Shown here piece after piece: positions 22,798-34,519 of a DNA stretch of 42,154 bases. The position numbers and the translations under genes are program-made. The DNA is from a virus, in the IMG/VR virus record IMGVR_UViG_3300045988_021923, one strand, 5' to 3'. The notes below the pieces were generated by a model. That model saw only the letters and a list, made by a program, of their open reading frames with translations, was not told the DNA's origin and did no database searches. Numbering within the stretch: position 1 is the stretch's first letter; the number at the start of each line of letters is the position of its first letter.

Positions 22798-23029
22798 CAC
22801 ATTTCCTCCTCCACCGGCATCCGTTACAGGCCCCCTCATGGGCCAGCGTGTAATTTCCGCATTTCAGGCACAGTTCGTTCCGCAGCGCGTCAATCTCTTT
22901 CGCCCGCGCTTCGATCAAGTCAGCGGCTCCCGCCAGATCGTCGCCCAGCGTGATCGGCGTTTCCCACTCATTTGCCTGCGCCCATTCCGCGTGCTCACGC
23001 AGCGCATTTACGAGGTTTGTATCTCTCAT
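22784..23029 (-). CDS. Hypothetical protein with C-terminal Cys cluster (81 aa)
   Basis: ATGA overlap with the methyltransferase stop. Confidence 0.6.
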   Translation of the reverse strand: MRDTNLVNALREHAEWAQANEWETPITLGDDLAGAADLIEARAKEIDALRNELCLKCGNYTLAHEGACNGCRWRRKCDGKC

Positions 23030-24318
23030 AATTCATCCCCCAATCTCCAATCATCGTCCCGCACCTGAAACGCATCCCCCAACTGCACCGTCTCCGGGTA
23101 ATTGTGCTGTGTGGTTTGGATGGCGTACTTGTCGATTTCGGTTGCATAGTAGGCGGTGATCGCCGCGCCCAGCTTGTCCAGCGCGATATGGCCGCAGCTC
23201 ATGCCGTCGTACATGGAAAGCACTTCCACCGGTTCCTCCGTCAGCCCGGTAAAGTGGCTCATGATATGCGCGATCACATCCACCGTCCAGCCGTTGCCCA
23301 GCATCTTGTAGGCTTGGCTGTTGCTAACCGGGAAAACATACTCCTCCGGCACGGTCTGGAGGTGTTTACATTCCGTCACGGTCAGCTTGCGAATGATGTA
23401 AAATCCGTCTGCCAGTTTAATGGGGTATGTCTTTCCTTTGATGGTAATCCGCCCGCCGTGAACCTCGTAAACTGGGATTTCTTTTCCGCCTGCCGCCTTA
23501 ATTACAAACCGCCCTTTTCCGTCCGGGATAACGGGCACGGCATAAAGCCCGGTTTTTGCCCCTACGCCGCCACCCTGTCCGCACAGGGTTACGCTTTTTG
23601 CGTCCGGGCTGTAAACACGGTATTGCTGGCTGTCAAAAGTCTGGTTCTTTGCGTCGTTCTCAATGGTTCCGATCCTCACCGGCTCCACCAGAACGTTATA
23701 CGGGACGCCCTTGTGGGTGTTCGCCGTCACGCAGGCACTTTTTTCCTGCGTTGCGTCGTGGAAATAATCGAAATCAAAATGGTTCCGCCCGTCCTTGGTT
23801 TCGCGCACCATATAATCCATTTCTTTTTCAGTCAGCGGCTTAATGGCAACAGGTTCCGCCGCACCATTCCGCTGGTGTCTGGAAACCATGTTGTCCGCCG
23901 TGGTTCCGCCGGTTGTGGACAGCAGAGCATACCCTTTTTCTTTCCAGCAGACACCACTTTCCAGAATGTCGCGCAGGAGGATCCCACGGTCCACCGGCTG
24001 CTCCACTGCCACTTGGCTGTATGTGCCGTCCGGGTTTCGTCTGCCCACCCAATACAGGCGCTGGCGGTTTTGTGCGCTCACCAGGGCGCTGTTAATCAGG
24101 ACAGGCTCCACGCCTAACTCCGCCGTGATCTGCGCCCGGATAGCGGGCGACATACTTTTATTGTTTTCGTACAGGAAAAAATCCGGCTGGTATTTATCCC
24201 GTGCAATACGGTAATTTAAGAACAGTTCCCAGCCGATGCCGCTGGCCTCTGTCTCGCGGTTCTTCGTCTGAGCGATGCTCCAATGTGTGCAGGGACTTCC
24301 GCCGATCAATAGTTTCAT
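23026..24318 (-). CDS. DNA (cytosine-5) methyltransferase with permuted motif order IV-X then I-III (430 aa)
   Basis: ATG 24318 (ATGA overlap, GGAGGA SD). Motifs in order: GGSPCTHWS (IV), LYENNKSM (VI), QNRQRLYW (VIII), RKLTVTECKHLQTVP (IX), GNGWTVDVIAHI (X), then LSMYDGMSCG (I), ATEIDKYA (II), LGDAFQV (III). Confidence 0.8.
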   Translation of the reverse strand: MKLLIGGSPCTHWSIAQTKNRETEASGIGWELFLNYRIARDKYQPDFFLYENNKSMSPAIRAQITAELGVEPVLINSALVSAQNRQRLYWVGRRNPDGTYSQVAVEQPVDRGILLRDILESGVCWKEKGYALLSTTGGTTADNMVSRHQRNGAAEPVAIKPLTEKEMDYMVRETKDGRNHFDFDYFHDATQEKSACVTANTHKGVPYNVLVEPVRIGTIENDAKNQTFDSQQYRVYSPDAKSVTLCGQGGGVGAKTGLYAVPVIPDGKGRFVIKAAGGKEIPVYEVHGGRITIKGKTYPIKLADGFYIIRKLTVTECKHLQTVPEEYVFPVSNSQAYKMLGNGWTVDVIAHIMSHFTGLTEEPVEVLSMYDGMSCGHIALDKLGAAITAYYATEIDKYAIQTTQHNYPETVQLGDAFQVRDDDWRLGDEL

Positions 24319-24662
24319 ACGTCCTCCGCTTCCGCAAGCCAGAACGCCCTTCGGCACTCCGAGCATGTGTGCCCTGCGCACTCTGGCACCTTTTTCCCGA
24401 AAATGTGACAGGGATTGATGTATAGACATTCCGCCTGGTCAACATTCGCCTCCGGAAACAGCTTCAAGAACTCGCTCTGCCTGGTTTTTATGGGGTGCTC
24501 CTTCGCCCACTTTTCGGCAATTTCCACCGCCTCCTCCGGGTGGGTTTTTCTCCAGACTGTGCAGGTTTCAAACACGCTAAGCCTTTTCCTGATCTCGCAG
24601 TTGCAGCACTCACAGTTGCACATTCTGCTCAATGTTTTCAAAAACTCCACAGCATCCATCAT
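24315..24662 (-). CDS. Cys-rich hypothetical protein (115 aa)
   Basis: CNCECCNCE and CAGHTCSEC clusters. ATGA overlaps at both ends. Confidence 0.6.
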   Translation of the reverse strand: MMDAVEFLKTLSRMCNCECCNCEIRKRLSVFETCTVWRKTHPEEAVEIAEKWAKEHPIKTRQSEFLKLFPEANVDQAECLYINPCHIFGKKVPECAGHTCSECRRAFWLAEAEDV

Positions 24663-28476: not shown

Positions 28477-28684
28477 TTTCTTTCCTCCTATATCTCGCAA
28501 ACCGCACGGTCTCGCCGTAGCGGTTCTTCTGTGTGACCGTCTCCACGTCCAGCGCCACGCCGTCCCGCCGCAAGTCAGAGACCCGCGCCGTGAAATTGGC
28601 GATGCCGCACTCGCTCATGGCCTCGGCCCGTGTGATACTGCCGTGTTCATCCAGATACTTCAAGATCCGCTCACACTGGTTCAT
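28457..28684 (-). CDS. Winged-helix DNA-binding protein (75 aa)
   Basis: Trimmed to MNQCERILKYLDEHGSITRAEAMSECGIANFTARVSDLRRDG. GGAGGG SD. Confidence 0.6.
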   Translation of the reverse strand: MNQCERILKYLDEHGSITRAEAMSECGIANFTARVSDLRRDGVALDVETVTQKNRYGETVRFARYRRKENGTEII

Positions 28685-28685
28685 A

Positions 28686-28889
28686 TCAGCCCTCCGGGAT
28701 TTCGATGATCGCGATCCCCATGGCCCGTGCCACGGCTTCCGGATCGCTGTCAACTTCATCCTTGAACCAGTCCTTCGCGCACTCCGGGCAGTAGCACTCG
28801 CCGTTGATCAAAAAACCCGGAGCCACATCGTCAAACGCATTGGGGTTCATGACGATGGAACATCTCGCGCACACCGGATAGATCTTCAT
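28686..28889 (-). CDS. Zinc-ribbon protein (67 aa)
   Basis: ATGA overlap at the start. CARC...CYCPEC. Confidence 0.55.
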   Translation of the reverse strand: MKIYPVCARCSIVMNPNAFDDVAPGFLINGECYCPECAKDWFKDEVDSDPEAVARAMGIAIIEIPEG

Positions 28890-29086
28890 TTCCACGCATC
28901 CCCTCTCTTCCACGCCTTCGTGGCGTTGGATTGCTGGGCGTAACCCGCTGTGATCGCGCCGCAGGTGGAACACCGTACATAGTGCTTAAACGGTGCGTCC
29001 GTGGACTGCACCCGCTCCCCGCTGTCTGTTCCGCAAGCAGGGCACGGCGATAATGCCAACCGTTCCTTTCGATTTCTCGCATTCAT
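28886..29086 (-). CDS. Second Lar-like zinc-ribbon protein (66 aa)
   Basis: PCPACG...YVRCSTCGAIT...ATKAWKR follows the Lar-family layout. ATGA overlap at the start. Confidence 0.5.
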   Translation of the reverse strand: MNARNRKERLALSPCPACGTDSGERVQSTDAPFKHYVRCSTCGAITAGYAQQSNATKAWKRGDAWK

Positions 29087-29205
29087 CGCACACTCACCAC
29101 CATGCAAGACAGGGCAATCAGAAGCAACAGCAGAAAGCAGATTGCGCCAATCCGCGCCGAAGCGTCCGCCTTTCTCTGCTCCCACGTCCGCTTATCATGC
29201 TTCAT
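29083..29205 (-). CDS. Small membrane protein (40 aa)
   Basis: MKHDKRTWEQRKADASARIGAICFLLLLLIALSCMVVSVR, one TM helix. The stop overlaps the next start as ATGA. Confidence 0.4.
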   Translation of the reverse strand: MKHDKRTWEQRKADASARIGAICFLLLLLIALSCMVVSVR

Positions 29206-29299
29206 GCCCCGGCCTCCTCTCGATAGCATCCACGATTTTAAAGGGCAGTGTGCAAGCATAGCCAACACCCAAAAGCATAAAAAACAGCTCCCAGCTCAT
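29195..29299 (-). CDS. Small hydrophobic peptide (34 aa)
   Basis: Not in the track. GGAGGAGG SD. The ATG overlaps the upstream stop as ATGA. Sequence MSWELFFMLLGVGYACTLPFKIVDAIERRPGHEA. Confidence 0.35.
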   Translation of the reverse strand: MSWELFFMLLGVGYACTLPFKIVDAIERRPGHEA

Positions 29300-29436
29300 T
29301 TCTTTGCCTCCTCCTTTTCTACCCCCAGAAATTTCAGGCCGTTAGCCTCTGCATAAACCTGCCCGAACGCGGTCATGATTTTAACCGGGTCAGGCGGTGT
29401 CACCCAAATGATTTTATAAACAGGCTTTTTTTTCAT
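29296..29436 (-). CDS. Small hypothetical protein (46 aa)
   Basis: Not in the track. MKKKPVYKIIWVTPPDPVKIMTAFGQVYAEANGLKFLGVEKEEAKK. First ORF after the Rha-downstream intergenic region. Confidence 0.4.
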   Translation of the reverse strand: MKKKPVYKIIWVTPPDPVKIMTAFGQVYAEANGLKFLGVEKEEAKK

Positions 29437-29464
29437 TGCCTTTTCCTTTCCCTTGTGCTATACT
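29436..29464 (+). promoter_or_regulatory. Candidate + strand promoter TTGCCT-17-TATACT
   Basis: -35 at 29436-29441 and -10 at 29459-29464. The -10 lies inside the 9-bp inverted repeat CTTGTGCTA/TAGCACAAG (29452-29473). Confidence 0.35.
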
Positions 29465-29470
29465 TAGCAC

Positions 29471-29538
29471 AAGAACGCTGTCTTTTGTTCTTAACCTTGC
29501 CCCGTTCGGTGCTCCTACACCGGGCGGGGCGCTTTTTT
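29471..29538 (+). ncRNA. Candidate ~68-nt antisense small RNA
   Basis: Starts downstream of the candidate promoter. Contains hairpin AAGAAC-10 nt-GTTCTT and ends in a + oriented terminator: GCCCCGTTCGGTG-CTCCTA-CACCGGGCGGGGC (G-U pairs only on + strand RNA) followed by GCTTTTTT. Confidence 0.35.
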
Positions 29539-30202
29539 ATCCCGCATTCTGCCCCACCATGGGAACCGTTCGCATTCGTGCCAAACAATCCTTGACTTGC
29601 TGATACTCCATGCCGACATCAAGCAACACCGCAATATGGTTTTCCATGCTTGACACCGCCGCGATTTCGTCAGCGCTCATGTAATCGCTGGCAACCGCCG
29701 CTCTGTCGGCTCCGCGTTCCTCTCGTAACTGCCGGGCCGACTTGCCAAGTGCCGTGCGGTAAGCCAAATCCGTGTACTGGTTGTACTTGAATTTTTTGTG
29801 CGGGCTGTCCGGCAGGGCTTTGATAGCATCCGTCATCCCCAACCGAATAGGCTTGCGTTCTGCCTTGACCGTCTTAATGTTCAGCAGCTCTTTCCGCATG
29901 GCGAAAAACTGACGAACCAGCTCTTTCTTGAACTCAATGACCACTGGCGTATTCCGGAGAAACGTAAGCAAAAGTGTTGCCTGCTGCTCATTCAGGTGGT
30001 AAACCTTGACCATTTGTTGGCCGCCTCGTGTCTGCAAGGTTCGGATTTCAAATCCGACCCTTCCAAATTCCCGAAGGTCTTTTTCATGGCGCTGGATTAA
30101 CTTCTGCACTGTGTCCCGCTTTACGTCCGCACATTCCGCAATCACTTCCGATGTGGTAAACGGTTCTTCAGTGTTGGGGGCAAGATAAACAAGCTCGTTC
30201 AT
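29537..30202 (-). CDS. Rha-family phage regulatory protein with ORF6C-like C-terminal domain (221 aa)
   Basis: PFTTSEVIAECADVKRDTVQKLIQRHEKDLREFG...YHLNEQQATLLLTFLRNT matches the Rha-family N-terminal domain. Confidence 0.75.
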   Translation of the reverse strand: MNELVYLAPNTEEPFTTSEVIAECADVKRDTVQKLIQRHEKDLREFGRVGFEIRTLQTRGGQQMVKVYHLNEQQATLLLTFLRNTPVVIEFKKELVRQFFAMRKELLNIKTVKAERKPIRLGMTDAIKALPDSPHKKFKYNQYTDLAYRTALGKSARQLREERGADRAAVASDYMSADEIAAVSSMENHIAVLLDVGMEYQQVKDCLARMRTVPMVGQNAG

Positions 30203-30423
30203 TTACCCTCCTTGACCGCTCTTGCGGCTTGTATCGCTTCCGATGCCGCTCTAATGTCCGCCTCGGTCACGCCGTAGAGCTTGGCCAGCGGCTTAATGTA
30301 CTTGTTCGTAATGCCATTGACGCCGCGTTCCCATTGGCTTACCGCTGAAGCGTAGACTTTCAGCTTCTTTGCAACGTCAACCAGACGAAGCCCTTTTTTC
30401 TCGCGAAGCTCCCGCAGTTCCAA
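30199..30423 (-). CDS. Cro-like XRE-family HTH regulator (74 aa)
   Basis: TTG start with GGAGGG SD 8 nt upstream. LRELREKKGLRLVDVAKKLKVYASAVSQWERG. First gene of the early operon. Confidence 0.7.
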   Translation of the reverse strand: MELRELREKKGLRLVDVAKKLKVYASAVSQWERGVNGITNKYIKPLAKLYGVTEADIRAASEAIQAARAVKEGK

Positions 30424-30460
30424 TCATTCATCCCTCCTTAAAAAGTTCAGAACTTTAATA

Positions 30461-30489
30461 TTGACAAATTCCGACCACACCGCTATTAT
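30461..30489 (+). promoter_or_regulatory. Strong sigma70-type promoter TTGACA-17-TATTAT driving the lysogeny operon
   Basis: Direct reading: -35 at 30461-30466, -10 at 30484-30489. Confidence 0.65.
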
Positions 30490-30587
30490 GTAAGTGTCAG
30501 CCAACAAAATATCGGTTATAAACCCGCAAAACGGATAAATACGATGGGGGTCTGGTTTTTTGTTGCCTAATTCAGTTCTGTAAGGAT

Positions 30588-30616
30588 ATTATATCCGATG
30601 ATTTGTAGGATGTCAA
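30588..30616 (-). promoter_or_regulatory. Consensus sigma70-type promoter TTGACA-17-TATAAT driving the early (Cro-like) operon
   Basis: On the - strand: -35 at 30616-30611, -10 at 30593-30588. It faces the + strand promoter. Confidence 0.7.
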
Positions 30617-30641
30617 TTAGAAATCTGACAAATCATCGGAT
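30593..30641. promoter_or_regulatory. 14-bp perfect inverted repeat (operator candidate) bracketing the early promoter
   Basis: ATCCGATGATTTGT (30593-30606) and ACAAATCATCGGAT (30628-30641), 21-bp spacer. The left arm overlaps the -10/spacer of the - strand promoter. Confidence 0.7.
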
Positions 30642-30685
30642 AGAAATGCACAACGTTTTTTTCTTCAATTTGTGAGGTTTTGCCA

Positions 30686-31465
30686 ATGGCATTATTTGAA
30701 GCCCAAATTCGCAAATATATAGAAGAAAATTTTAGTGCGCGTGAAAAAGAAATTTTGGCACAAGAACAAAATTTAAAAACCCGGCTTAATAAAAGCCGGG
30801 AGTACAGAATTATGCTGAGAGATTATCAGCAGGAATTGAAAAACCGGGAAAAGAAAATCATTGAAAAAGAAGCAGAATTAAATGAGCGAGAACAAAATCT
30901 TGTGTCCCAAATAAAAGAAAACTTAATCAAGCCTTTATCCGACGAAAAAGGAAAACTTGAACAGCAAATAAAAAAAGCAAAACTTGAATTGTCTGGATAC
31001 CAAAACATGGAATACGAAATTATTGATTGGGTTTCCAGAATGGAAAAGAAAGAAAGCGCGATATTTCAAGAGCTAATTGGCGATGCTCAAAAGTATGACA
31101 ATAATCAAATTTCTATTGACGGTTATGATTTTGAGACATTTGTTGCAAAACTTCTTACCGCCAATCAATTTACAAACGTAGAGGTTACGGCCAAAAGCGG
31201 AGATTACGGGGCCGACGTTCTTGCAAACAAAGACGGAATAAAATATGTCTTTCAATGCAAATATTATTCTAATCAAGTTGGAATTGAAGCTGTCCAGCAA
31301 GTGTATTCTGCAAAAGATTTTTATAACGCTCATGTCGCGATTGTCATTACAAACAGTGTTTTTACAAAAGCAGCTAAAGTATTAGCCAATGAACTAAATG
31401 TTGTTTTGTGGGATTGCGAAAAACTGAACGAGCTAAAAAAGGTTGATGAAAAAAGCGGTGGATAA
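30686..31465 (+). CDS. Coiled-coil protein with C-terminal Mrr_cat-type restriction endonuclease domain (259 aa)
   Basis: ATG 30686 (GTGAGG SD). The N-terminal ~125 aa are heptad-rich (EKEILAQEQNLKTRLNK...). The C-terminus GYDFETFVAKLL...SGDYGADVLANKDGIKYVFQCKYY...IVITNSVFTKAAKVLA matches the Mrr catalytic domain D...(Q/E)xK. Confidence 0.75.
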   Translation: MALFEAQIRKYIEENFSAREKEILAQEQNLKTRLNKSREYRIMLRDYQQELKNREKKIIEKEAELNEREQNLVSQIKENLIKPLSDEKGKLEQQIKKAKLELSGYQNMEYEIIDWVSRMEKKESAIFQELIGDAQKYDNNQISIDGYDFETFVAKLLTANQFTNVEVTAKSGDYGADVLANKDGIKYVFQCKYYSNQVGIEAVQQVYSAKDFYNAHVAIVITNSVFTKAAKVLANELNVVLWDCEKLNELKKVDEKSGG

Positions 31466-31910
31466 AAAAGAAAATAAAGCAGTAGCAAATGTAGATGCCA
31501 TTTTAAATTTAATTATTTCACGCGGTTGGAGCCGTACTTATTTTTCCAAAACCCTTATGGGGAAAAATCACGGATGGCTTACTGATTTAAAAAGAAAAGG
31601 CTGCATTGTATTTCTTGAAGATGCGGCCAAAATATGTATTTTACTGAAAACCACCCCCGAAGAAATCCTTATGCACGAGGGCAAAAACGAAGAAGAAACG
31701 CAAAAGTGCAAAGACAATATTGAGCTGGTAAGGGAGCTGGTGGAGGCGCAGAAAAAGCGCTCCGCCGAAAATGGCGAAGCGCAATATACTGAATTAACCG
31801 ATAAAGAAAAGCAAATCCTTACTCTTTTCCGTCAAATCCCGGAAAAGGAATGGGACAACATTCTTCTTGCGGTTGAAGTTTCTTTACGCAGCAAAGGATT
31901 GTTGAAATAG
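31446..31910 (+). CDS. XRE-like HTH protein, CI-repressor candidate (154 aa)
   Basis: ATG 31446 overlaps the nuclease gene by 20 nt. RGWSRTYFSKTLMGKNHGWLTDLKRKG...EDAAKICILLKTTPEEIL. Confidence 0.6.
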   Translation: MKKAVDKKENKAVANVDAILNLIISRGWSRTYFSKTLMGKNHGWLTDLKRKGCIVFLEDAAKICILLKTTPEEILMHEGKNEEETQKCKDNIELVRELVEAQKKRSAENGEAQYTELTDKEKQILTLFRQIPEKEWDNILLAVEVSLRSKGLLK

Positions 31911-31977
31911 CGACCTCCGCAGCGGCTGCCGGGTCAGTTGACTTGCGTATCATGTCGAGTAACTTTTCTTCGTGCAT
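31819..31977 (-). CDS. Possible small convergent gene (52 aa)
   Basis: AAGGAG SD 10 nt before ATG 31977 (MHEEKLLDMIRKSTDPAAAAEVAISTIL). Its 3-prime 92 nt overlap the 31446-31910 gene antisense, so one of the two calls may be wrong. Confidence 0.3.
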   Translation of the reverse strand: MHEEKLLDMIRKSTDPAAAAEVAISTILCCVKKLQPQEECCPIPFPGFDGKE

Positions 31978-32095
31978 TACAGTCTTCTCCTTCATGTCCA
32001 ATCCCTCCGGCGAAATATTTTTCAAGTCCAATCCTACTATATTTTATCAAGATAAAAATTATTTTTCATACCTGAGTTTTCATCGAAACATTATA

Positions 32096-32136
32096 GTGTG
32101 GCCGACCGGCCACACTTCAGGGGATATCCCCTGAAG
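32096..32136. promoter_or_regulatory. Two abutting palindromes (20 bp and 22 bp), function unknown
   Basis: GTGTGGCCGACCGGCCACAC (9-bp arms) shares one base with the perfect palindrome CTTCAGGGGATATCCCCTGAAG. On the - strand a TATAAT (32095-32090) abuts the first palindrome. Confidence 0.8.
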
Positions 32137-32378
32137 CAATTAAAGGAAACTCAGCCCCGCCGCCTCTGCAACAACAGCGGGGCCGAGTGGCAAGCCTGTG
32201 TGGGGCTGGCTTGCTGCAAATAGAGCATAGCAAAATTGGGTTGGGTACGGCAATCGTCAAACGTGGGAACCCCTTGTTTACTTTATGCAACCTTAGCGGA
32301 CACACTAAAGTAATTTACAGTCTACACTATGATATTTGCCTACCCAAGTTGTGTTCAACAGTGTGGGGAGGTATTTTT

Positions 32379-32813
32379 TTGACTATTCAGGAAATGTGTA
32401 AGGAACGAAAAACTTCTTTGGGGATTACTTCGCAGGAAATAGCAGACCAATCAGGTGTTCCACTATCCACTGTGAACAATTTCTTCGCTCACGCCTCTAA
32501 GTCTCCACCGCTTTATACCGCTGCGCCAATTTGCGCGGTTTTGGGCGTGTCACTGGATGCGTATTTTGGCATTGGAGACCATTTAACCGCAACGGAAGAA
32601 ACCTTGCAGGCGGAAAAGGTCGGTCTGGAAAAGCGCTTATCCAACAAGCGGGAGACGATTGATGTGCAGAATCATACCATCAATGTGATGGAAAAGGGTC
32701 TGCGGATTCGCAACTGCGTGATTTTGGTTATGGGCGTAGCAATCGTCCTGTTGCTGTGCTGGTGCGTATATGTGGATATGCACGCGCTGAATATCGGTTT
32801 TTGGAGGGAATAA
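32379..32813 (+). CDS. XRE-family HTH protein with C-terminal transmembrane anchor (144 aa)
   Basis: TTG 32379 (GGGGAGG SD) or ATG 32394. ITSQEIADQSGVPLSTVNNFF, a coiled segment, then CVILVMGVAIVLLLCWCVYV. The stop overlaps the recombinase start (TAATG). Confidence 0.6.
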   Translation: MTIQEMCKERKTSLGITSQEIADQSGVPLSTVNNFFAHASKSPPLYTAAPICAVLGVSLDAYFGIGDHLTATEETLQAEKVGLEKRLSNKRETIDVQNHTINVMEKGLRIRNCVILVMGVAIVLLLCWCVYVDMHALNIGFWRE

Positions 32814-34117
32814 TGAGAGCTGCGTTATATATCCGCGTGTCCACCGAAGAACAGGCCAAGCAAGGTCTATCCCTCCCGGAACAGAGGGACGCTTTATCAA
32901 AATATGCTGACGCAAACAACATGGAAGTCATCGGCGTATACGAGGATGCCGGTATCAGCGCCCGAAAGCCGTACAAAAAGCGTCCGGCACTATTGCGCTT
33001 ACTTGAAGATTGCAATGCCGGGAAGATTGATGTAATTCTGTTTATCAAACTGGATAGATGGTTCCGCAATGTTTCCGGGTATTATGCAGTGCAAGACCAA
33101 TTAGACAAGTGCGGCGTCAAGTGGCAGGCAACACAAGAGGACTACGAAACGCGCACAGCATCCGGGCGGCTAAAAGTCAACATTATGTTATCTGTGGCGC
33201 AAGACGAAGCTGACCGCACCAGCGAACGAATTAAATTTATCAATGATGGCAAGCGAGCAAAAGGCCAGCCTACTAACGCAAAGGCTCCGCTGGGCCTTGT
33301 GGTAAAAGACCGGCAATATCAAATAGACCCTGATACCGCCGAAGCCGCAAAGGATATGTTTTCCGCATTTATCCGTCTGCGGGGGATTTTGCCCCTAAGA
33401 AAATATATGGCCGCTACGTGGGGAATAAATCGTTCGTATAGCAAATATGTTGGTCTTATCCAAAATCGGTTGTACATCGGAGAAGTATACGGTATTGCCG
33501 ATGCCTGCCCTGCACTAATCAACAAAGACGAATTTACACTCGCAAACGAATTGCTCCAACATCGGAGCCAGCGCGGGGCCAGCGCTTCACCTGACCGCAC
33601 ATATTTGTTTTCTGGCCTGTTGCATTGCCGCGAATGTGGAACCTCGATGCAATCGGAGACCGCGAAGAAAATATATACTTACTACCGCTGCCGAAAGCGT
33701 ATGCTGGATAATTCCGCTTGCCCTCATAATCGCCGTATCCGAGAAGATGTGTTGGAAGAATATTTACTAAGGGAAATCGAACATATCGCTACGGCCTACC
33801 ACGGAAAATACGAAAAAGCAGAAAAAAAGCCTGCCATAGCGGCAGACAAAATTAAACGAAAGATGCAGAAGCTAAAAGAACTTTACCTTGCAGACCTGAT
33901 TGATATTGAGGAATATCGAAAGGATTACGAGGATATGAAACGTAGCCTTGAAATTATGGAAGCGTCTCAGCCGCCTGCATTTGATGTCGGGGCGTTAAAG
34001 TCAGGGCTTGCGGAATATCCACACATGACGAAAGAACAAAAGAAAGGCTTTTGGACACGCACAATCCAGCGCATTGATGCTGATAATGACGGTGCGTTTT
34101 TTGTAACGCCTCGTTAG
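32813..34117 (+). CDS. Large serine recombinase (phage integrase), 434 aa
   Basis: MRAALYIRVSTEEQ...GLSLPEQ resolvase catalytic N-terminus, recombinase domain, and zinc ribbon CRECGTSM...YYRCRKR. Confidence 0.9.
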   Translation: MRAALYIRVSTEEQAKQGLSLPEQRDALSKYADANNMEVIGVYEDAGISARKPYKKRPALLRLLEDCNAGKIDVILFIKLDRWFRNVSGYYAVQDQLDKCGVKWQATQEDYETRTASGRLKVNIMLSVAQDEADRTSERIKFINDGKRAKGQPTNAKAPLGLVVKDRQYQIDPDTAEAAKDMFSAFIRLRGILPLRKYMAATWGINRSYSKYVGLIQNRLYIGEVYGIADACPALINKDEFTLANELLQHRSQRGASASPDRTYLFSGLLHCRECGTSMQSETAKKIYTYYRCRKRMLDNSACPHNRRIREDVLEEYLLREIEHIATAYHGKYEKAEKKPAIAADKIKRKMQKLKELYLADLIDIEEYRKDYEDMKRSLEIMEASQPPAFDVGALKSGLAEYPHMTKEQKKGFWTRTIQRIDADNDGAFFVTPR

Positions 34118-34159
34118 GCATATTTTACGTTGCGGTTAGTCACAGTGAAATATGCCTAA
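34114..34159. promoter_or_regulatory. attP candidate: 12-bp perfect inverted repeat with 22-bp spacer (46 bp)
   Basis: TTAGGCATATTT (34114-34125) and AAATATGCCTAA (34148-34159). It overlaps the recombinase stop codon. Size and outer-arm symmetry resemble serine-integrase attP sites. Confidence 0.4.
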
Positions 34160-34188
34160 AATCCCCCGCCTTTGTAGACGGGGGATTT
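34159..34188. terminator. Bidirectional terminator between the recombinase gene and the convergent accessory operon
   Basis: AAATCCCCCG-10 nt-CGGGGGATTT. On the - strand it is followed by TTTTAGGCATATTT. Confidence 0.65.
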
Positions 34189-34189
34189 C

Positions 34190-34519
34190 TCATATAGCCT
34201 GAAGTTTTCGCATGACATTATCATAGACCTTTCTGTTTACCACTTTCAAGGTGTCCAACAGTTCATCCATGATTTCCCATGCTTTTTCTGGGTCTTTACC
34301 ATCGACAGCTCTCAAAAAGTCACTGTCACCAGAAATACGAACTGCTTCAGGGGCGGGGGATGCTGAATACATGGCTATGGGCGGAGCAGGCCGGTCATCC
34401 TTTTGATTTTGGTGGTCTTGTACGATGTACAGCGCCGCTAACTTCTCATAGTTTGACCAGCTTGTTTCTTCCGTTTTGAGGCGGTTAATCCACAGACCAA
34501 TTTCTTTTTCGTCAACCAT
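34190..34519 (-). CDS. Hypothetical protein (109 aa), last gene of the accessory operon
   Basis: Intact ORF with an ATG start. No motif recognised. Confidence 0.65.
   Translation of the reverse strand: MVDEKEIGLWINRLKTEETSWSNYEKLAALYIVQDHQNQKDDRPAPPIAMYSASPAPEAVRISGDSDFLRAVDGKDPEKAWEIMDELLDTLKVVNRKVYDNVMRKLQAI

Follow-up and report, generated by a model that had tools for sequence, protein, structure and literature searches.

The nuclease gene ORF1 and its AT-rich setting

The subject of this work is a pair of genes, ORF1 and ORF2, in a stretch of 42,154 nucleotides of viral DNA (IMG/VR record IMGVR_UViG_3300045988_021923), hereafter called the window. The window looks like an apparently complete genome (~42 kb) of a temperate siphophage, whose host group is the gut Oscillospiraceae. 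It carries genes for a terminase, an SPP1-type portal, capsid and minor capsid proteins and a serine integrase; tRNA genes were not found anywhere across the window. At positions 30686–31910 two open reading frames (ORFs) on the plus strand, ORF1 and then ORF2, overlap each other. The 20-nt overlap described in an earlier, model-made annotation of this DNA (the first-pass annotation) is exact when ORF2 is read from ATG 31446. From GTG 31458, the equivalent of which is the start called for ORF2 in close relatives, the overlap comprises 8 nt. The locus lies in an AT-rich island, as had also been noticed in the first pass: the GC content is 0.34–0.37 across 30401–31600 and ~0.45 up to 32400, compared to 0.516 for the whole window. 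At third codon positions the GC content of ORF1 is 0.30, that of the cro-like gene and rha 0.61. The AT bias is therefore present at the codon level and does not merely result from the Lys/Glu/Asn-rich helix that ORF1 encodes. We could reproduce all sequence-level statements of the first-pass annotation.

ORF1 (30680/30686..31465, plus strand) occupies the first position, here called slot 1, of the rightward or lysogeny operon. Its likely start is ATG 30686, with GAGG located 7 nt upstream, resulting in a protein of 259 amino acids (aa) in which a long N-terminal helix or coiled coil is fused to a C-terminal Mrr_cat domain of the PD-(D/E)xK type. This description is based on the reading frame, Pfam, homologues and an AlphaFold2 (AF2) model, and agrees with the domain composition given by the first-pass annotation. 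The Pfam family Mrr_cat (PF04471) matches residues 146–252 with E=3.4e-28 and 98.5 bits, against a cut-off of 21, and both motifs quoted earlier, GDYGADV and VFQCKYY, are present. Taking invariant columns and Foldseek matches into account as well, the nuclease core extends over residues 146–258 (31121..31459). In the alignment of 50 homologues F149, E150, D173, G175, D177, Q190, C191 and K192 are invariant. Among these, we take E150 (31133–31135), D177 (31214–31216), Q190 (31253–31255) and K192 (31259–31261) to be the catalytic residues, following general knowledge of the PD-(D/E)xK superfamily. On careful alignment E150/D177/Q190-x-K192 are intact, so the E...D...QxK set of an active Mrr-type PD-(D/E)xK enzyme appears to be complete. 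We also considered whether ORF1 is an inactive member of NA-iREase1 (PF22722), an inactive domain that gives a secondary match of 8.3e-11, and rejected this because the catalytic residues are intact and invariant.

The AF2 model, calculated as a monomer on the homologue alignment, has a predicted local distance difference test (pLDDT) value of 90 and shows one helix from residue 2 to 139 followed by an alpha/beta core with the fold alpha-beta-beta-beta-alpha-beta. Foldseek matches of this core in the PDB are AF1548, MspJI, EndoMS, AspBHI, Can2/Cdn1 and the nuclease domain of Avs4. At the domain level, both the fold and the catalytic residues place ORF1 in the Mrr_cat PD-(D/E)xK superfamily. 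A database search yielded ~68 full-length homologues with 34–59% identity, nearly all of them metagenomic. Comparing ten distinct genes of a 270-aa subtype of ORF1, we obtained a ratio of nonsynonymous to synonymous substitution rates of 0.07–0.08; ORF1 is under purifying selection. Existing annotation is sparse: NCBIfam contains nothing for ORF1 or ORF2, a close homologue in UniProt is named just “Restriction endonuclease [Siphoviridae sp.]”, and literature searches on the ORF1 family found no paper. A megablast search of 28500–34500 against the INPHARED phages gave no match, and the corresponding protein search returned relatives of the C-terminal domain of ORF1 alone, e.g. in Roseburia phage Jekyll.

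The N-terminal part of ORF1 is a single long amphipathic helix (residues 2–139, 30689..31102), which we presume to be a coiled coil or oligomerization arm on the basis of the AF2 model and its periodicity. Conserved motifs of this arm are KSREYRIMLRDYQ and IIDWVSRMEKKE. Over residues 1–140 the hydrophobic periodicity peaks at 3.6 residues, a signal matched by 0 of 2000 shuffled sequences, and a strict heptad signal of 3.5 residues is not significant over the same residues. The pattern is best described as heptad/hendecad-like, as heptads interrupted by stutters would yield 3.6. Because a lone helix of 200 Å is implausible as a monomer, the modeled arm probably drives oligomerization to a dimer or higher state. 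Pfam returned no match for residues 1–145, and neither a Mrr_N winged helix nor another reading domain was found there. The first-pass annotation had seen in the coiled coil a sensor coupled to a nuclease effector. We rejected the idea of a sensor coiled coil that can be combined with exchangeable effectors: when residues 1–144 were compared with 1.84 billion representative proteins we obtained 14 matches, which are all family members or truncated pieces of such members, and the arm is paired with no other effector. Furthermore, one to three transmembrane (TM) helices precede the arm in many full-length relatives, which points to tethering or oligomerization as its likely task.

The switch region and the regulator ORF2

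The comparisons between loci draw on ~170 related loci, which are designated with the prefix L. The cro-like gene (30199..30423, minus strand), the first gene of the leftward operon, encodes a 74-aa protein with a helix-turn-helix (HTH) domain (Pfam HTH_3/HTH_31, ~3e-11) and is separated from ORF1 by 262 nt. Two promoter-like sites face each other in this gap. The first, P(+) (30461..30489, plus strand), has the sequence TTGACA-17-TATTAT pointed out in the first pass; it matches the consensus at 11 of 12 positions and is invariant in ~90 related loci. We presume it to be the lysogenic promoter for ORF1-ORF2 and possibly also for ORF3 and the integrase gene further downstream. The opposing promoter P(-) (30616->30588, minus strand) is a perfect TTGACA-17-TATAAT with 12 of 12 consensus positions and is assigned to the cro-like gene, rha and other leftward genes. 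Its hexamers (ATTATA and TGTCAA on the plus strand) are conserved in every cassette type; its spacer is type-specific. The predicted transcripts from P(+) and P(-) would overlap by ~85–90 nt.

Two putative operators, O1 and O2, are located at 30593..30641. They were recognized by an inverted repeat, by compensatory changes between loci and by the type-specific palindromes found at this place. O1 (TCCGATGATTTGTAGGA, 30594–30610) lies inside the 17-nt spacer of P(-). O2 (ACAAATCATCGGAT, 30628–30641) is situated ~10 nt beyond the -35 element of P(-) and is the inverted partner of ATCCGATGATTTGT (30593–30606). The palindrome found at this position differs from one cassette type to the next, and its changes go along with changes in the putative recognition helix of ORF2.

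The left part of the gap is formed by a conserved leader element (30456..30568, defined by alignments). It consists of P(+) and the first ~75 nt of the transcript and serves as the left homology arm of the cassette; on the other strand it also forms the far part of the leader of the cro-like gene and would be transcribed in antisense from P(-). This stretch of ~110 nt is near-invariant between loci whose flanking proteins are only 53–68% identical or have been replaced. Near-invariant copies occur in ~90 loci (e.g. L002 5768–5880, L022 4035–4150), diverged versions in L104 and L010, and an exact 28-nt pattern of the leader in 73 IMG/VR contigs. The plus strand of the leader (30496–30690) folds better than shuffled sequences (z=-3.6) and includes a hairpin at 30502–30565 that ends in a U-run. 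A search of Rfam over 30300–32500 at E<=1 returned just two chance-level matches, and the conserved leader matches no RNA family. It could represent a regulatory RNA or antisense element, a binding region for the cro-like protein, or both.

ORF2 (31443/31446..31910, plus strand) encodes a modular regulator of 154–155 aa with an atypical XRE-type HTH (residues ~16–74), a long helix (82–115) and an exchangeable C-terminal helical hairpin. Pfam has no match for ORF2 of the window itself, and the HTH assignment was pieced together from several sources. The relative P0133 matches Pfam HTH_3 at 1.8e-4, the PHROG repressor family phrog_3 matches ORF2 at 0.004, and a profile built from 12 sequences of the ORF2 family finds the XRE/CUT HTH structures 3bs3 (0.007) and SATB2 CUT (0.005) in the PDB. 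The AF2 model (monomer) contains five short helices over residues 16–74, and the top Foldseek matches are all XRE regulators (CylR2, SinR, HipB, SaPI Stl, C.Esp1396I), weak as they are with E values of 0.17 or worse. These lines agree on an XRE-type HTH domain in the N-terminal ~75 residues, in line with the XRE-like gene proposed in the first pass.

In the ORF2 family a variable N-terminal domain is followed by the conserved core TTPEEILMHEG...IELVRELVE and by one of several interchangeable tails. The tail of the window's ORF2 (YTELTDKEKQILTLFRQIPEKEW...) is also present on 126-aa proteins with a canonical HTH_3 N-terminal domain. Altogether we count at least 4–5 unrelated C-terminal tails of ~40 residues (31785–31907 in the window; L002, L022, L029, L036, L060), which occur in varying combinations with N-terminal domains of ORF2 and with canonical HTH_3 domains. 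Such a tail thus seems to be an independent module, perhaps for oligomerization or partner binding.

Across the loci ~9 operator types can be distinguished, each accompanied by its own variant of the ORF2 stretch that aligns to the HTH recognition helix. The consensus of this putative helix is G-K-x-x-x-W-x-[ST]-[DE]-x-x-R. Three Mrr-type cassettes have CCGAT half-sites in common and likewise a common ORF2 helix, KN(H/N)GW(L/I/V)TDL(K/R)R. Since its helix covaries with the operators and the cro-like protein and ORF3 do not, ORF2 is the best candidate for the repressor. Judged from these comparisons its function is, most likely, that of an immunity repressor acting on the lytic promoter. The first-pass annotation had left the choice between a CI repressor and a dedicated regulator; operator covariation and tail exchange speak for the first option, an immunity repressor of the CI type, rather than for a regulator that serves the nuclease alone. 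Physical linkage is, however, a confounding factor in the covariation argument.

Two other candidates for the operator reader were considered. ORF3, a HTH protein with a TM helix, is 99% identical in L022 despite unrelated operators and always travels with the integrase, and was rejected as CI repressor. The slot-1 protein, the family of which also tracks the operator type, was rejected too, since this role would make repressors of six unrelated folds. In addition, Mrr-type cassettes sharing CCGAT half-sites also share their ORF2 recognition helix, a canonical HTH_3 protein takes the ORF2 position after the 187-aa type of slot-1 protein described below, and in L010, where a slot-1 gene is missing, operators and a repressor are present all the same.

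The HTH region of the cro-like protein hardly varies between cassette types whose operators are unrelated. The cro-like protein is therefore probably not a reader of O1/O2 and presumably acts on a conserved part of the region. A perfect palindrome (AAAGTTCAGAACTTT, 30442–30456) lies between the ribosome binding site of the cro-like gene and the -35 element of P(+), and a related half-site, AGTTCTG (30574–30580), is found beside the -10 element of P(-); both are kept in all loci. They are candidate sites for the cro-like protein in an asymmetric switch of the P2/186 kind, which the face-to-face promoter layout resembles. With ~nine operator types in the same P(-) frame, the sister phages contain a natural set of orthogonal repressor/operator pairs, and the compact switch with face-to-face promoters and operators in the promoter spacer would be useful as a source of such pairs.

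A variable gene position between leader and probable repressor gene

For a census of slot 1 we oriented the loci on the exact 28-nt leader pattern and read the genes downstream of it. The census is biased towards loci with the exact pattern, and one large IMG/VR dataset contributed many of them. The gene directly behind the leader encodes a Mrr_cat protein in 31 loci. Elsewhere the first gene belongs to at least five other unrelated families, with proteins of 187 aa, 221 aa (and a distant relative of 367 aa), 272 aa, 236 aa and 242/258 aa. The 236-aa protein resembles tetratricopeptide repeat (TPR) proteins, and the 242/258-aa protein has a winged-helix-like C-terminus. Searches of Pfam and PADLOC gave no significant match for any of these alternative slot-1 proteins, examples of which are found in L040, L031, L028, L022, L036 and L060. 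All slot-1 genes are AT-rich, with a GC content of 0.32–0.43 compared to 0.53–0.57 in the early genes. The second gene always belongs to the ORF2 family; following the 187-aa type it encodes a canonical HTH_3 protein with an ORF2-type tail.

Slot 1 is occupied in all 80 loci that have the exact leader pattern and enough downstream sequence. In the distant relative L010, which has a homologous leader and the same promoter geometry, the repressor gene follows straight after the operators and slot 1 is empty. The switch can therefore do without slot 1, which behaves like a position for cargo. The locus combines alternative genes between conserved flanks with a deviating base composition, two characteristics of a variable cargo or “moron” hotspot. 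Further downstream, extra cargo (DUF2513, small TM proteins) and the type of integrase (serine or tyrosine) shuffle freely.

We also looked at the contexts in which ORF1 relatives are found. In a second phage group (L101–L104, 52% identity of ORF1) the layout is the same, with a relative of ORF2 downstream (32%, E=7e-14) and a diverged leader. A prophage of Oscillibacter ruminantium GH1, like related contigs (45% identity), carries in succession a CI-type HTH gene, an ImmA-type metalloprotease gene, the Mrr_cat gene, small genes and a tyrosine integrase gene. Roseburia phage Jekyll has a similar series of Xre, ImmA-like protein, a protein composed of zinc ribbon, TM2 and Mrr_cat, and integrase; here the helical arm is absent. 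In L105 the ORF1 homologue stands alone on the opposite strand within the tail-gene block, which makes it a textbook moron, and one family member is chromosomal or plasmid-borne. ORF1 homologues thus recur in prophages without an ORF2-like neighbor. Among 76 IMG/VR loci that contain the Mrr_cat subfamily, an integrase lies within 4 kb in 47 (downstream on the same strand in 35 of these), and 48 have at least one TM helix. Instead of ordinary type IV restriction operons, the homologues occupy lysogeny modules of unrelated prophages and, as a lone moron, a tail module; membership in such operons, which the first-pass annotation had named as a refutation of its reading, is thus not what we observe. 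Full-length relatives in named genomes all come from Oscillospiraceae. The Mrr_cat domain alone, with ~38% identity, occurs in Microvirga genomes (L111–L136) in many copies per genome, plasmids included, a distribution that suggests carriage by a mobile element.

A second cargo position follows ORF2. In many relatives it contains a gene for a 147-aa DUF2513 protein or other small genes, some of them with TM helices (L001 9198–9641; L029, L032, L038, L050, L053, L055 and others), in combination with any cassette type. In the window it is vacant.

Possible functions of ORF1 and comparison with known systems

With moderate confidence we interpret ORF1 as an accessory nuclease expressed in the lysogen, a moron in a variable cargo slot, which probably acts in defence or superinfection exclusion and is not a member of any named system. 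On one side of the slot is the switch region, on the other the probable immunity-repressor gene ORF2. A near-consensus P(+) upstream and the shared strand with the repressor and integrase genes suggest that ORF1 would be co-transcribed with the repressor from P(+) and so be made in the lysogen. The helical arm would assemble ORF1 into a dimer or higher oligomer and, in relatives, tether the nuclease below the membrane. The enzyme may then cut incoming foreign (phage) DNA and in this way protect the lysogen and hence the prophage. ORF2 would repress the lytic promoter through O1/O2. Its tie to ORF1 would be one of position, probably with translational coupling, and it would not be a dedicated partner. 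The comparative data, i.e. the variable slot, the empty slot in a relative and the lysogeny-module contexts, favor this inference of a defence or superinfection-exclusion function, as the first-pass annotation had proposed.

Several points weigh against it. How the enzyme distinguishes self from non-self is not evident. The first-pass annotation had stated that the nuclease has no methylase or specificity partner. No such gene is adjacent to ORF1, but ~6 kb away in the leftward (lytic-strand) block the phage encodes a C-5 cytosine (C5) DNA methylase (23026–24429, minus strand; Pfam 4.4e-28), and this enzyme would conflict with a simple type IV activity dependent on 5-methylcytosine (m5C). Nor is the C5 methylase a shield for the host chromosome in the manner of a restriction-modification methylase, unless it is also expressed in the lysogen. 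Options for sparing host and prophage DNA are a requirement for a modification or structure, action at the site of DNA entry only, or activation by infection. P(+) is called from its match to the consensus only. Window ORF1 has no TM helix, so the membrane tether seen in relatives may not apply to it. The PADLOC matches to ORF1 cover the nuclease domain only, which is also why we agree with the first-pass annotation that no named system fits. Because the other slot-1 families match no known defence protein, the label “defence hotspot” rests on analogy. Finally, wherever ORF1 occurs within the phage group, the matching types of ORF2 N-terminal domain and operator accompany it. Tight linkage explains this association, and functional pairing would explain it too.

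This last point leads to the main rival, a toxin-first toxin-antitoxin or abortive-infection pair, in which ORF2 would curb ORF1 in addition to being the repressor and loss of the repressor would free the nuclease. The overlap of 8–20 nt and the toxin-first order with an XRE second gene correspond to the layout of HigBA/MqsRA, and there is a 1:1:1 linkage between slot-1 family, type of ORF2 N-terminal domain and type of operator. However, the ORF2 family follows six unrelated slot-1 proteins, a repressor with the same tail is present in L010 with its empty slot, and ORF1 homologues occur without an ORF2-like neighbor as a lone moron, after CI-ImmA and in a chromosomal setting. The ORF2 profile matches the GraA antitoxin structures 6f8s/6f8h weakly, but this match is not significant (E ~0.2). 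Since there is no homology inside the cassette to permit recombination, linkage alone explains the 1:1:1 pattern. As regards the known features of type II systems, the locus has the overlapping two-gene operon with a HTH second gene but lacks a consistent pairing of toxin and antitoxin families. We consider this explanation hardly likely. Its widest form, in which the 1:1:1 linkage would be functional and the immunity repressor ORF2 would be a cognate inhibitor for the ORF1 nuclease and likewise for every alternative effector in slot 1 of sister phages, is given the same low chance. If ORF1 were an integral part of the lysis-lysogeny switch and not cargo, e.g. an induction sensor, or a co-repressor or antirepressor acting with ORF2, the constant occupation of the slot in the 80 exact-leader loci and the tracking of operator and ORF2 type by the slot-1 family would be accounted for, and some alternative slot-1 proteins do look like regulators (the TPR-like protein and the one with the winged-HTH-like C-terminus). 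This is extremely unlikely in our view, as L010 has the same switch architecture and no slot-1 gene, a single switch role for six unrelated folds is improbable, relatives of ORF1 are found far from any switch, and the conserved catalytic residues favor DNA cleavage over regulation.

The remaining alternatives keep ORF1 as a nuclease and assign it other work. A type IV restriction enzyme of the Mrr kind, for which we see a small chance, would cut modified incoming DNA and leave unmodified host DNA safe by default. In agreement with this the Pfam domain is Mrr_cat with the QxK variant typical of Mrr, PADLOC mREase_IV models match weakly (1e-5), Foldseek finds the modification-dependent enzymes MspJI and AspBHI, and a cognate methylase is not adjacent. 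On the other hand the N-terminus is one helix in which neither Mrr_N nor another modification-reading domain was found, the homologues are not in type IV operons, and the C5 methylase encoded by the phage and several relatives would create a risk of self-restriction on induction. We regard a role of the nuclease in the DNA metabolism of the phage's lytic cycle (breakdown of host DNA, recombination or junction resolution) as very unlikely. PD-(D/E)xK enzymes do such jobs in many phages, there is a weak match (8.6e-5) to a PHROG family annotated as RusA-like Holliday junction resolvase, and some homologues carry the JGI name “HJR/Mrr/RecB family endonuclease”. ORF1, however, lies on the lysogeny strand together with repressor and integrase genes and faces away from the early genes. 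Sister phages do without ORF1 and have recombination genes of their own, e.g. ERF, RecT/YqaJ and RusA, and many relatives are membrane-anchored.

E. coli Mrr and other type IV enzymes resemble ORF1 in catalytic fold, in the E...D...QxK set and in standing alone without an adjacent methylase. In place of the N-terminal winged-helix Mrr_N of E. coli Mrr, ORF1 has a helix of ~138 residues, and it is located in a phage repressor operon. The best match among defence proteins is ZorD of type I Zorya (PDLC00631), whose C-terminal Mrr-like domain matches with 2.9e-18 in PADLOC. In Zorya the nuclease-bearing protein acts jointly with a membrane complex whose long tail is intracellular (PMC11946911), a layout loosely like that of the ORF1 relatives with TM helices, coiled coil and Mrr_cat. 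The match is limited to profile positions 915–1060 of 1071, though, and ORF1, a single polypeptide of 259 aa, has neither the SNF2 helicase nor ZorA/B/C neighbors. Regarding Lamassu, LmuA matches over positions 18–81 of 336 (3.7e-7), the LmuB match (0.006) reflects coiled-coil similarity within ORF1, and there is no ATPase gene nearby. Models of the candidate single-gene system PDC-S02 in PADLOC match with 5e-14. This match comprises just residues 120–251 of the query and 168–304 of 334 profile positions, i.e. the nuclease part and not the full length, and PDC-S02 is found in survey lists only, without a described mechanism. Gene order, overlap and XRE-type second gene of ORF1-ORF2 are shared with HigBA, MqsRA and GraTA, from which the locus differs in that ORF1 is not obligatorily paired and ORF2 appears to behave as an immunity repressor with operators in the lytic promoter.

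As for its position, phage lambda carries the defence genes rexAB in the cI operon. P22-like phages have the prophage defence gene BstA beside the repressor (PMC8585504). The location within or next to the immunity region of a temperate phage is shared by ORF1, as would be expression in the lysogen and protection of the lysogen from other phages. The proteins are unrelated to ORF1, which opens its operon, ahead of the repressor gene, and whose role in defence we infer. The hotspots of antiviral systems in P2 and P4 (Rousset et al. 2022, PMC9122126) are comparable to slot 1 in their fixed position, conserved flanks and many alternative unrelated genes; slot 1 differs in phages, hosts and position (inside the repressor operon), and only its Mrr_cat cargo matches a known defence family. 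A functional screen in E. coli identified single proteins that are orphan DNases lacking a methylase, among them one combining membrane, coiled-coil (DUF4041) and nuclease parts (Vassallo et al. 2022, PMC9519451). Many ORF1 relatives have the same layout, with a membrane anchor, a coiled coil in the middle and a DNA-cleavage domain at the C-terminus. ORF1 itself shows no DUF4041 match and no sequence relationship to the screen proteins was found; nuclease family and host phylum are different.

Prophage-borne defence genes shape the spread of phages in the gut. To our knowledge, almost nothing is known about such genes in Oscillospiraceae and other gut Clostridia. The locus brings to light an uncharacterized, strongly conserved family of single-gene nucleases (arm plus Mrr_cat, often membrane-tethered) recurring in lysogeny modules, which the homologue in cultured Oscillibacter ruminantium GH1 makes testable. 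It also provides a newly delimited cargo hotspot that can be found by its 28-nt leader and offers at least five further families without known domains as candidates for defence or lysogenic conversion. The hotspot itself may be the more useful discovery of the two. If the nuclease proved to be an ordinary restriction enzyme, the gain would be modest. If instead it were gated by the repressor, immunity and defence would be linked in a new way. Loss of the repressor through a rival antirepressor, prophage loss or induction would unleash the nuclease, the lysis-lysogeny switch would contain a repressor-gated abortive-infection or addiction device, and the slot would amount to a library of at least six effectors under one trigger logic.

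Downstream of ORF2 the rightward block continues with ORF3 (32379..32813, plus strand), a HTH_3 protein according to Pfam and alignment, which is part of the integration module and has a short coiled segment and a C-terminal TM helix. The block ends with a large serine recombinase, the integrase (32813..34117, plus strand; Pfam Resolvase 7.9e-31, Zn_ribbon_recom), in whose place relatives have tyrosine integrases. ORF3 is located directly upstream of serine and tyrosine recombinases alike, with an identity of 47–56% across the phage group, and may regulate integration or excision while anchored in the membrane. The C5 methylase is also encoded by other phages carrying Mrr_cat genes (L001, L024, L101, L104). 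On the minus strand an ORF of 70 aa (31819–32031) overlaps the 3' end of ORF2. It is called as a gene (68 aa) in sister contigs and has a promoter-like site at 32069–32041 and no family match. A terminator-like hairpin with a T-run is located at 31757–31782 (minus strand) within the ORF2 coding region. The gap between ORF2 and ORF3 contains two strong GC-rich hairpins, at 32095–32116, a perfect 22-nt palindrome (AGTGTGGCCGGTCGGCCACACT), and at 32149–32188, with a stem of 16 bp. Both score as terminator-like on the minus strand, with no convincing T-run following either of them.

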